Made by a program: the position numbers and the translations under genes. Positions 15,705-59,499 of a stretch of DNA of 64,000 bases are shown one piece after another. Source of the DNA: Escherichia coli (GTDB taxonomy: Bacteria; Pseudomonadota; Gammaproteobacteria; Enterobacterales; Enterobacteriaceae); the NCBI RefSeq assembly GCF_003334355.1, contig NZ_QOWP01000016.1; one strand, given 5' to 3'. The notes below the pieces were generated by a model. It saw only the letters and a program-made list of their open reading frames with translations. It was not told where the DNA came from and made no database searches. How positions within the stretch are numbered: position 1 is the first letter of the stretch; each line of letters opens with the position of its first letter.

Positions 15705-15734
15705 AAAAGGTCCGATGCCCATCGGACCTTTTTA
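15705..15734 (-). terminator. Intrinsic terminator for ygbN (also terminator-like on the plus strand)
   Basis: Hairpin GGTCCGATG...CATCGGACC flanked by A-run upstream and T-run downstream on the plus strand. Confidence 0.7.
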
Positions 15735-39697: not shown

Positions 39698-39786
39698 GCT
39701 AAATTGCCCGATGCGCTGCGCTTATCGGGCCTTCATGGTTCGTGCGACATGTAGGCCGGATAAGGCGTTCACGCCGCATCCGGCAC
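39698..39786. repeat. REP (repetitive extragenic palindromic) elements between hycI and ascB
   Basis: Imperfect palindromes of the GCCGGATAAGGCGTT...GCATCCGGC type typical of E. coli REP sequences. Confidence 0.8.
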
Positions 39787-52394: not shown

Positions 52395-53160
52395 TGCTCT
52401 CTCCGGTTATGATCACATCGATCCCTTTCTCTTCCAGCGCCTGACGAAACGCCGGATCGATACCTGCGTCGGTAATCAGCTTATCGACGCTTTCAAGACT
52501 GCAAACTACGTTGGGGCTTTTACGGCCAAACTTTGATGAGTCCGCCATCAAAATCACTTCGCGCGCGGCATTGCACATTGCCTTACTGACGGTATAAACC
52601 TCGTTAAAGGTGGTTACGCCCGCATTGAGATCGATGCCGTCGGTGCCCATAAACAATTTATCGAAGGTGAAATGCTCGAAGGCATTCTCTGCCAGTTGCC
52701 CGTGAAATGAGGCCGATTTTTTGCGAAACGTTCCGCCTGGCATCAGGATAGTTTGTTCGTTATCCAGTTCGGATAGCGCATTGACGATATGCAGGCTGTT
52801 GGTCATCACCGTGATGTTATTAAAGCGCGAGAGCAGGGGAACCATCTGCAAAACGGTACTGCCAGCATCAAGAATGATCGAATCGCCATCATGGATAAAA
52901 CTAACGGCAGCTTCTGCAATCAGCTCTTTCTTGTGGGTGTTGATGAGTGTTTTATGATCGATAGGCGGATCGGATTCCTCTTTATTCAACACCACTCCGC
53001 CATAAGTACGAATGACGGTTCCGGCATGTTCCAGAATGACCAGATCTTTGCGAATGGTTGTGCCTGTGGTGTCAAAGTATTGCGCCAATTCTTCAACCGA
53101 GCATTTACCCTGCTTTTGCAGATACTCCAGAATGGCGGCCTGACGCTGACGAGGTTTCAT
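52387..53160 (-). CDS. srlR: DeoR-family glucitol operon repressor (257 aa)
   Basis: ORF 257 aa with N-terminal HTH. Confidence 0.93.
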
Positions 53161-53226
53161 GGGCGTGATTACCTGATTTAGGTTTCAAAATGATAACTTC
53201 GCAAGCAAGTAACATTCACAACGAAA

Positions 53227-53586
53227 TTATCCACGTTTCAGTTTAAGCGCCAATGATAGAGCATTCTGTGATAGTGGATCATGGGGAAAGATCACATCGG
53301 GCTGTAAATCACCCGCATGCATACCGGTAATTGCGGGAATTTTTTGCGGTCGGGCGAAGACGGTCAGTCCTTTCATAAACAAGGTGTCGACGATGCGCTG
53401 CTGATCGTCCAGCGCGATGGCGACCACGACCCGCGGTTTAAAGCGCCCGCTGGAACGGCCCACGCCAACCCGCCCTTGCTGGCATAGTGTGTCGAAGGCA
53501 CGGTTAAAACGAGAAATTTGCCAGCCGCCTAAGGCCAGTTGCGCACACCAGGCGATAACGGCGACGGTGATGAGTGCGGATACCAT
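53227..53586 (-). CDS. gutM: Glucitol operon activator GutM (119 aa)
   Basis: ORF 119 aa with N-terminal hydrophobic segment; between srlD and srlR. Confidence 0.9.
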   Translation of the reverse strand: MVSALITVAVIAWCAQLALGGWQISRFNRAFDTLCQQGRVGVGRSSGRFKPRVVVAIALDDQQRIVDTLFMKGLTVFARPQKIPAITGMHAGDLQPDVIFPHDPLSQNALSLALKLKRG

Positions 53587-53690
53587 AACTTTTCCTTAAT
53601 GTAGTGGCGGAAGTCCTGTATGCCTGATGAGCGTAGCGCATCAGGCATTCTATAGTCTCACGGAGATCCTTAATGGATCTCCGCTGTTGA

Positions 53691-54845
<1,155 letters not shown>

Positions 54846-57860: not shown

Positions 57861-58358
57861 ATGACTGACAGTGAACTGATGCAGTTAAGTGAACAGGTTG
57901 GGCAGGCGCTGAAAGCCCGTGGCGCAACCGTAACAACTGCCGAGTCTTGTACCGGTGGTTGGGTAGCGAAAGTGATTACCGATATTGCCGGTAGCTCCGC
58001 CTGGTTTGAACGCGGATTTGTCACCTACAGTAACGAAGCCAAAGCGCAGATGATCGGCGTACGCGAAGAGACGCTGGCGCAGCATGGCGCGGTGAGTGAA
58101 CCCGTCGTGGTGGAAATGGCGATAGGCGCACTGAAAGCGGCTCGTGCTGATTATGCCGTGTCTATTAGTGGTATCGCCGGGCCGGATGGCGGCAGTGAAG
58201 AGAAGCCTGTCGGCACCGTCTGGTTTGCTTTTGCCACTGCCCGCGGTGAAGGCATTACCCGGCGGGAATGCTTCAGCGGCGACCGTGATGCGGTGCGTCG
58301 TCAGGCTACTGCGTATGCATTGCAGACCTTGTGGCAACAATTTCTACAAAACACTTGA
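57861..58358 (+). CDS. pncC: NMN amidohydrolase PncC, CinA-like (165 aa)
   Basis: ORF track starts at GTG 57858; ATG at 57861 gives MTDSELMQLSEQ... Confidence 0.9.
   Translation: MTDSELMQLSEQVGQALKARGATVTTAESCTGGWVAKVITDIAGSSAWFERGFVTYSNEAKAQMIGVREETLAQHGAVSEPVVVEMAIGALKAARADYAVSISGIAGPDGGSEEKPVGTVWFAFATARGEGITRRECFSGDRDAVRRQATAYALQTLWQQFLQNT

Positions 58359-59499
<1,141 letters not shown>

Follow-up and report, generated by a model that had tools for sequence, protein, structure and literature searches.

The srlD-gutM spacer and its stem-loops

The window, a 64-kb stretch of Escherichia coli DNA analysed as a whole, carries the sorbitol operon on its minus strand at about 53.6 kb, where the list of open reading frames gives srlA, srlE, srlB, srlD, gutM, srlR and gutQ in this order, with norR next. 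The spacer between the srlD stop codon and the gutM ATG is 104 nt long and is, base for base, the same as that of K-12 MG1655. On the polycistronic srlAEBD-gutM-srlR-gutQ mRNA, this spacer carries two independent stem-loops, referred to here as hairpin A and hairpin B (Table 1), and gutM is the first gene downstream of both. In the order of the mRNA, the srlD UGA is followed by 6 nt, hairpin A, 12 nt, hairpin B, and a last stretch of 31 nt, which includes AAGGAAAAG, before the gutM AUG. Hairpin B, a repetitive extragenic palindrome (REP), starts about 42 nt past the srlD stop.

Table 1. Features of the srlD-gutM junction in window coordinates
Feature	Position	Strand	Basis
srlD CDS, sorbitol-6-phosphate dehydrogenase	53691..54470	-	ORF list; RefSeq annotation of identical E. 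coli DNA and of MG1655
srlD stop codon UGA	53691-53693	-	ORF list
Hairpin A, GCGGAGAUCC-AUUAA-GGAUCUCCGU	53660..53684	-	inverted repeat and fold; 9 perfect pairs and a closing G.U
Hairpin B, solo REP (Z-type palindromic unit), GTATGCCTGATGAGCGTAGCGCATCAGGCAT; on the srl mRNA AUGCCUGAUGCGCUACGCUCAUCAGGCAUAC	53618..53648	+	inverted repeat, copy number
Published RNA 3' end (MG1655 2828590 +)	53617..53617	-	Adams et al. 2021, supplementary files 1 and 3; mapped through L001
Weak third stem-loop, GGACUUCC paired with the gutM Shine-Dalgarno region AAGGAAAAG (~53589-53597)	53584..53618	-	MFE structure
gutM CDS, sorbitol operon activator	53227..53586	-	ORF list; Pfam PF06923 homologues named GutM; MG1655 annotation
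gutM start codon ATG	53584-53586	-	ORF list

An earlier note, made from the letters of this DNA, had described two perfect palindromes between srlD and gutM that would form stable stem-loops in the mRNA. Both palindromes are there. The one at 53620-53648 (ATGCCTGATG/CATCAGGCAT) extends beyond its perfect arms to 13-nt arms of 92% complementarity around a 3-nt loop, and the one at 53661-53683 (CGGAGATCC/GGATCTCCG) has fully (100%) complementary arms around a 5-nt loop. On the mRNA the 9-bp palindrome comes first, 6 nt after the stop, forming ten pairs with its closing G.U, and the 10-bp palindrome comes second. The expected folding was also borne out, as the predicted fold of the minus-strand spacer RNA has just these two stem-loops and a weak third stem covering the gutM Shine-Dalgarno sequence. 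The folded segment, 113 nt running from the srlD end to the gutM ATG, reaches -42.3 kcal/mol (z = -5.8), and none of 200 shuffled sequences folded as well. Folded singly, hairpin A has -17.7 kcal/mol (z = -6.7) and hairpin B -18.2 kcal/mol. Across 11 Escherichia alleles, 97% of the cells of the third stem are paired, without covariation.

Counting perfect inverted repeats with arms of 9 nt or more and loops of 3 to 10 nt gives 13 in the whole window, where first-order Markov simulations of the window give an expectation of 2.2 ± 1.5. Two such repeats inside one 104-nt spacer are, therefore, not a matter of chance. The eleven others lie elsewhere in the window, one of them at 15705-15732. Among these eleven, AAAAGGTCCGATGCCCATCGGACCTTTT resembles a bidirectional terminator. 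A perfect palindrome, ATACTGTATGAGCATACAGTAT, is found at 58358-58379, about 60 nt upstream of the recA ORF (58438 onward), and is presumably the LexA SOS box of recA.

The two hairpins resemble intrinsic (Rho-independent) terminators in that a stable, G+C-containing stem-loop stands right behind a stop codon, but their tails, UGAGACUA and ACAGGACU, hold no U-tract. A scan of positions 53000-54200 returned no terminator-like site, and the published intrinsic terminator score at the RNA 3' end of this junction is 1.51 against a threshold of 3.0 (Adams et al. 2021). An identity as intrinsic terminators is thereby ruled out. Of the Rfam families, the NiCo-AnGGAG riboswitch (RF03164) matched 53653-53729 of the minus strand, spanning hairpin A and the end of srlD, with 27.3 bits against a gathering threshold of 64.5 (E = 0.009); we take this sub-threshold match as chance. 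The only other match at a permissive threshold was a snoRNA, which we also take as chance.

A solo REP behind an Escherichia-specific hairpin

The earlier note had offered, as one option, that the palindromes are repeat-like sequences, and for the palindrome at 53620-53648 this is literally true. In mRNA order, hairpin B reads AUGCCUGAUG-C-GC-UAC-GC-U-CAUCAGGCAU (53648-53620) and folds into 10 pairs, a 1x1 internal loop and 2 pairs; it is an imperfect palindrome within the 30 to 40 nt by which REPs are recognised, and it is extragenic, lying within the srlD-gutM spacer 3' of srlD. A 42-nt query for hairpin B found related places in all 5,426 E. coli genomes, with a median of at least 40 places per genome and at least 204,403 places altogether. 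By blastn-short, the arms GCCTGAT...ATCAGGC are common to the Z-type units of REP325, whereas the centre differs. Compared with the described E. coli REPs (Y, Z1 and Z2; Bachellier, Ton-Hoang et al. 2012), hairpin B has Z-type arms and a length of about 31 nt, is likewise extragenic in a 3' UTR-like site between tandem genes, and is likewise multicopy in each genome. Solo REPs such as this one are a minority (84 of 584 in K-12), and the window copy differs from the described REPs by GTAT in place of GTAG and by the closing of one stem mismatch.

Hairpin B is apparently not only an already annotated kind of element but an already annotated copy, as the MG1655 REP annotation in Table S10 of a recent preprint lists gutM as 'REP-adjacent: Yes' (Harris et al. 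2026). The RefSeq copy of MG1655 shows no repeat feature at srlD-gutM, but it shows none even at REP325 or at the ~5.5 kb REP region, so its silence is uninformative. A BIME identity is ruled out, since only one palindromic unit lies in the spacer, hairpin A having no relation to REPs. The window does contain true BIMEs, made of a Y-type and an inverse Z-type REP, at ~39.70-39.79 kb and 47.06-47.14 kb. Fuzzy matching across the window and loci L002 and L088 for Z units with a short centre like that of hairpin B gave one related unit only, at 39704-39734.

The spacer occurs in E. coli as two haplotypes, of which the one that is not K-12-like is common to the other Escherichia species. The K-12-like haplotype carries three linked derived changes, namely GTAG to GTAT, the closing of one REP stem mismatch, and the weakening of the gutM Shine-Dalgarno sequence from the GGAG of other alleles to GGAA; its exact 42-mer is carried by about 3,000 records. 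The canonical allele, GTAG...CCTGATAAG, is present in other strains and species. The corresponding copies of E. coli ZJ3920 and other Escherichia have the sequence GTAGGCCTGATAAGCGTAGCGCATCAGGCA, with GTAG and a two-base stem mismatch, and GTAG (CCTAC on the mRNA strand) is found in E. coli ZJ3920, E69 and SCPM, in E. whittamii and in other Escherichia copies. The window copy has GTAT at 53618-53621 (+). Where canonical alleles have an AA / GC stem mismatch, the window allele has closed one position by T>C on the mRNA strand and left the other unpaired. Both REP changes lengthen or strengthen the RNA stem, which has -18.2 kcal/mol in the K-12-like allele as against -13.2 kcal/mol in the canonical one, a gain of 5 kcal/mol. 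In view of its sequence, the window REP is a point-mutated descendant of the canonical REP, a member of the family by descent that lacks one recognition determinant. Since GTAG and the stem mismatch are both required in vitro for binding and cleavage by TnpA-REP, and both are altered here, this K-12-like copy is probably immobile.

Hairpin A, which holds two GATC sites, is of another kind. A query of the same length as that for hairpin B found it in 5,409 of the 5,426 E. coli genomes at a median of one place per genome; a single place per genome rules out that it is a repeat. Every Escherichia locus retrieved has it, and the other genera lack it. All ten pairs form in each of 11 Escherichia alleles (100% paired), with variation in the loop and the flanks. 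Three changes fall within the stem (GC>GU, UA>UG and CG>UG), and these remain compatible with G.U pairing only on the mRNA-sense strand, which we count toward a role at the level of RNA. Double compensatory changes were found in neither stem among the 11 alleles, so that covariation lends no statistical support. Literature text searches on srlD and gutM returned nothing specific to the spacer, and no earlier description of hairpin A was found in the literature searched. Hairpin A is an unremarkable mRNA stem-loop, undescribed as far as we could find.

E. coli XD35 (NZ_CP089142.1) is a natural knock-out of the hairpin pair. In this strain the IS5-like element ISEc68 is inserted at TTAA in the loop of hairpin A, at the equivalent of about 53668-53672 in the window. 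The insertion (locus ~180-329) removes the 3' arm of hairpin A, the REP and the start of the normal gutM junction.

RNA ends and transcript levels across the junction

The earlier note had proposed that the hairpins could act as attenuators or stability elements modulating gutM-srlR expression relative to srlABD, and had named term-seq and RNA-seq coverage as the places to look. Published data support the proposal on both counts. By Term-seq of MG1655 in LB at an OD of 0.4, a 3' end supported by 4,666 reads was curated at 2828590 (+), between ...GCTCATCAGGCATACA and GG, 31 nt upstream of gutM, and was classed as orphan (Adams et al. 2021). In the window this end maps 3 nt past the last paired base of the REP stem, that is, 3 nt downstream of the hairpin at 53620-53648. 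In the same study, DirectRNA-seq over 800-nt windows gave 585 upstream and 197 downstream of the end without bicyclomycin (ratio 0.34), and 309 and 199, respectively, with bicyclomycin (ratio 0.64). Coverage thus drops about 3-fold across the end, and the drop is partly recovered by bicyclomycin. The corresponding Rho score is 1.91, flagged as 'significant Rho termination region: Yes', where the authors' rule-of-thumb value is 2. The end was recorded in one of three growth conditions only, in which the operon is poorly induced.

The RNA-seq step is seen in the DESeq2 baseMeans of Harris et al. 2026 (Table 2). RNA abundance within the operon peaks in srlD, immediately upstream of the hairpins, and is lowest in gutM, immediately downstream of them; reads per nt are about 12-fold fewer for gutM than for srlD, in values that average all samples of a study of another locus and that its authors did not correct for length or mappability. 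From their position we infer that the hairpins cause the drop. The per-nt values of srlR and gutQ exceed that of gutM, which points to an internal promoter or to differential decay as a further influence on the ratios. A sigma-70-like site, TTGGCG-16-GATAAT, runs from 53253 to 53226 (-) in the last gutM codons upstream of srlR; such a promoter-like site would fit the higher RNA levels of srlR and gutQ.

Table 2. Transcript levels along the operon (Harris et al. 2026, DESeq2)
Gene	baseMean	Reads per nt
srlA	5059	~9
srlE	9888	~10
srlB	3582	~10
srlD	14816	~19
gutM	590	~1.6
srlR	2494	~3.2
gutQ	2536	~2.6

We propose that the pair probably acts as a barrier to 3' exonucleases combined with a leaky, partly Rho-dependent attenuator, which sets srlAEBD above gutM-srlR-gutQ. 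Since neither hairpin has a U-tract behind it, the hairpins do not terminate transcription alone. Rather, some RNA polymerases would be released in or just past the region with the aid of Rho, which would gain access through the untranslated, slightly C-rich stretch past the REP and through the weak initiation of gutM. The 60 nt past the REP (53620-53561, -) contain 18 C and 11 G, a C/G ratio of 1.64 that is the highest of the neighbourhood, though modest. Transcripts ending farther downstream would be trimmed by 3'->5' exonucleases back to the REP stem, leaving a stable 3' end 3 nt past it, with hairpin A standing behind as a second barrier. Together, hairpins A and B would define where the abundant srlAEBD message ends on its 3' side. 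The net outcome would be a step down in RNA, with the PTS and dehydrogenase genes well above the gutM and srlR regulators and gutQ. Termination and protection would each have a share in this step, and hairpin A may have a role beyond that of a second barrier.

The arrangement has a close parallel in REP325 between yjdM and yjdN, described as a partly Rho-dependent terminator and a stabiliser of the upstream mRNA (Harris et al. 2026 preprint). There, too, a REP lies between co-transcribed genes with more RNA upstream than downstream, RNA 3' ends fall at the REP, dependence on Rho is partial, and no U-tract is present. In contrast, REP325 comprises 12 palindromic units, whereas the srlD-gutM spacer has one unit with a unique non-REP hairpin ahead of it, and the effect at srlD-gutM is deduced from position. 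More generally, expression of tandem gene pairs with a REP is biased to the upstream gene, the effects of REPs vary with context, and half-lives are not uniformly lengthened by REPs. For the REP between the co-transcribed genes malE and malF, Newbury and colleagues are said to have reported in 1987 a stabilising role, with higher levels of the upstream RNA.

Instead of acting on RNA, the spacer might act as DNA, with hairpin A serving as an operator for SrlR, GutM or another protein, or with a promoter in the spacer driving gutM-srlR-gutQ. The perfect 9-5-9 palindrome does have an operator-like geometry, and a published genomic SELEX placed a peak of RpoD holoenzyme within the srlD>gutM spacer and recorded it as a constitutive gutM-srlRQ promoter, with no -35 or -10 named. 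Our scan, however, finds no sigma-70-like site in the spacer, and gutM RNA is scarcer than that of any other segment of the operon, contrary to a promoter directly ahead of gutM. The half-site GGAGATCC is missing from the srlA promoter region, where the regulators of the operon must act, and hairpin A as an operator is rejected on this ground. Furthermore, conservation beyond Escherichia extends to GutM and SrlR but not to the palindrome, and the stem substitutions break the DNA palindrome yet give G.U pairs on RNA. A DNA-level element is, therefore, highly improbable.

The spacer might also act on translation, either through hairpin A hindering the terminating ribosome and lowering SrlD, or through the third stem occluding the gutM Shine-Dalgarno sequence. 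Hairpin A begins 6 nt past the UGA, within the cover of the terminating ribosome, and in many other species the first hairpin likewise lies 0 to 9 nt past the stop. In the MFE structure, part of the gutM Shine-Dalgarno sequence is paired, and K-12-like alleles carry this sequence in the weakened form GGAA. Reportedly, REPs within 15 nt of a stop codon lower protein yield, as Liang, Rudd and Deutscher are said to have found in 2015. Against such a role as the explanation of the locus, the REP stands about 42 nt past the stop, outside this 15-nt class, no other segment of the operon is as abundant in RNA as srlD, and the hairpin lies anywhere from 0 to 93 nt past the stop, depending on the species. 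We thus consider it very unlikely as the main function; an effect on translation may coexist with the proposed barrier and attenuator rather than replace it.

Conservation and turnover of the junction

The earlier note had also pointed to conservation in other enterobacteria, and here, too, the outcome was favourable. Of 5,426 complete E. coli genomes, about 5,400 have the pair of hairpins, and a strong hairpin stands at the junction in every related genus. What is conserved outside Escherichia is the presence of a hairpin and not the sequences. A scan with a GutM profile over one genome per species gave 80 loci with srlD directly upstream of gutM, with spacers of 41 to 612 nt. In the 75 species, all of them Enterobacterales, whose spacer does not exceed 200 nt, a single stem-loop with a folding energy of -11.4 kcal/mol or lower is always present (median -23.3 kcal/mol), and the median z of these whole spacers is -3.9. 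In the adjoining gutM-srlR spacer of these loci, the values are -11.9 kcal/mol and z = -1.6.

The hairpins themselves are non-homologous among genera, being a REP, a BIME, another palindrome or a terminator. By a crude motif test, 55 of the 80 spacers hold REP- or BIME-like sequences of the local family, 7 hold CCCTCTCCC/GGGAGAGGG palindromes and 18 hold other hairpins. Minimal spacers of 41 to 46 nt consist of just a G+C hairpin and a Shine-Dalgarno sequence, with no REP motif, and Hafnia and Ewingella have terminator-like hairpins with U-rich tails. The structure of the junction is, in short, universal while its sequence turns over.

This turnover bears on a neutral account, in which the REP is selfish DNA lodged in a tolerant spacer, hairpin A is a product of chance or a relic, and the RNA 3' end is a by-product, none having a selected role. 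REPs are mobile and of high copy number, the spacer ranges from 41 to 612 nt with different repeat families in each genus, one E. coli strain tolerates an IS5-family element within the hairpin A loop, and compensatory covariation was not found, all of which would suit such an account. We nevertheless regard it as unlikely, because a strong hairpin is present in every one of the 75 short spacers, including those of 41 to 46 nt without a REP motif, while the adjacent gutM-srlR spacer is much less structured. Besides, nearly all E. coli genomes retain both hairpins, the two K-12-like REP changes both strengthen the RNA stem, by 5 kcal/mol in sum, and the changes in the stem of hairpin A all preserve wobble pairing.

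A more far-reaching possibility, which we put forward tentatively and hold to be rather doubtful, is that the srlD-gutM junction needs a stable RNA stem-loop, that lineages fill this need with non-homologous parts, and that the K-12-like allele has been domesticated. The parts would then be the terminator-like hairpins of Hafnia and Ewingella, the G+C hairpins of minimal spacers, genus-specific REPs, BIMEs and CCCTCTCCC-type palindromes, and in Escherichia the unique hairpin with its solo REP. REPs may, on this reading, have been recruited repeatedly as replacement modules for attenuation or stabilisation. The K-12-like allele may represent the last step of domestication, having lost the transposase site, gained 5 kcal/mol of stem stability and acquired a weaker gutM Shine-Dalgarno sequence. 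If so, all three K-12-like changes would push the expression of the regulators down.

Returning to the barrier and attenuator that we favour, the junction holds a known kind of element in its usual role, and the mechanism of hairpin B is the textbook role of a REP; its importance beyond the sorbitol operon is little. The 3' end at the REP was already in a public table, unexplained there, and the REP with the second hairpin supplies a named cause for this orphan Term-seq end. The arrangement would explain why far more sorbitol transporter and dehydrogenase than activator and repressor are made from the same transcript. Only two aspects are mildly new, namely the universal but non-homologous hairpin at the junction, a small case of a regulatory site that stays fixed while its structures turn over, and a K-12-like allele that loses transposase determinants while gaining stem stability. 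With two natural alleles 5 kcal/mol apart in stem stability, the site could lend itself to studies of the still-debated function of REPs.

Two observations concern the surroundings of the spacer. In E. coli S17-1 (NZ_CP040667.1), only the first 55 nt of a 301-nt query, its gutM part, find a match, which implies a break or rearrangement inside gutM beside the spacer. In some genomes of Citrobacter, Salmonella and Enterobacter (L026, L028, L035, L039 and L087), the gutM-srlR spacer, normally 63 to 73 nt, measures 137 to 267 nt and is strongly structured, an expansion that suggests further insertions of REPs or BIMEs there.
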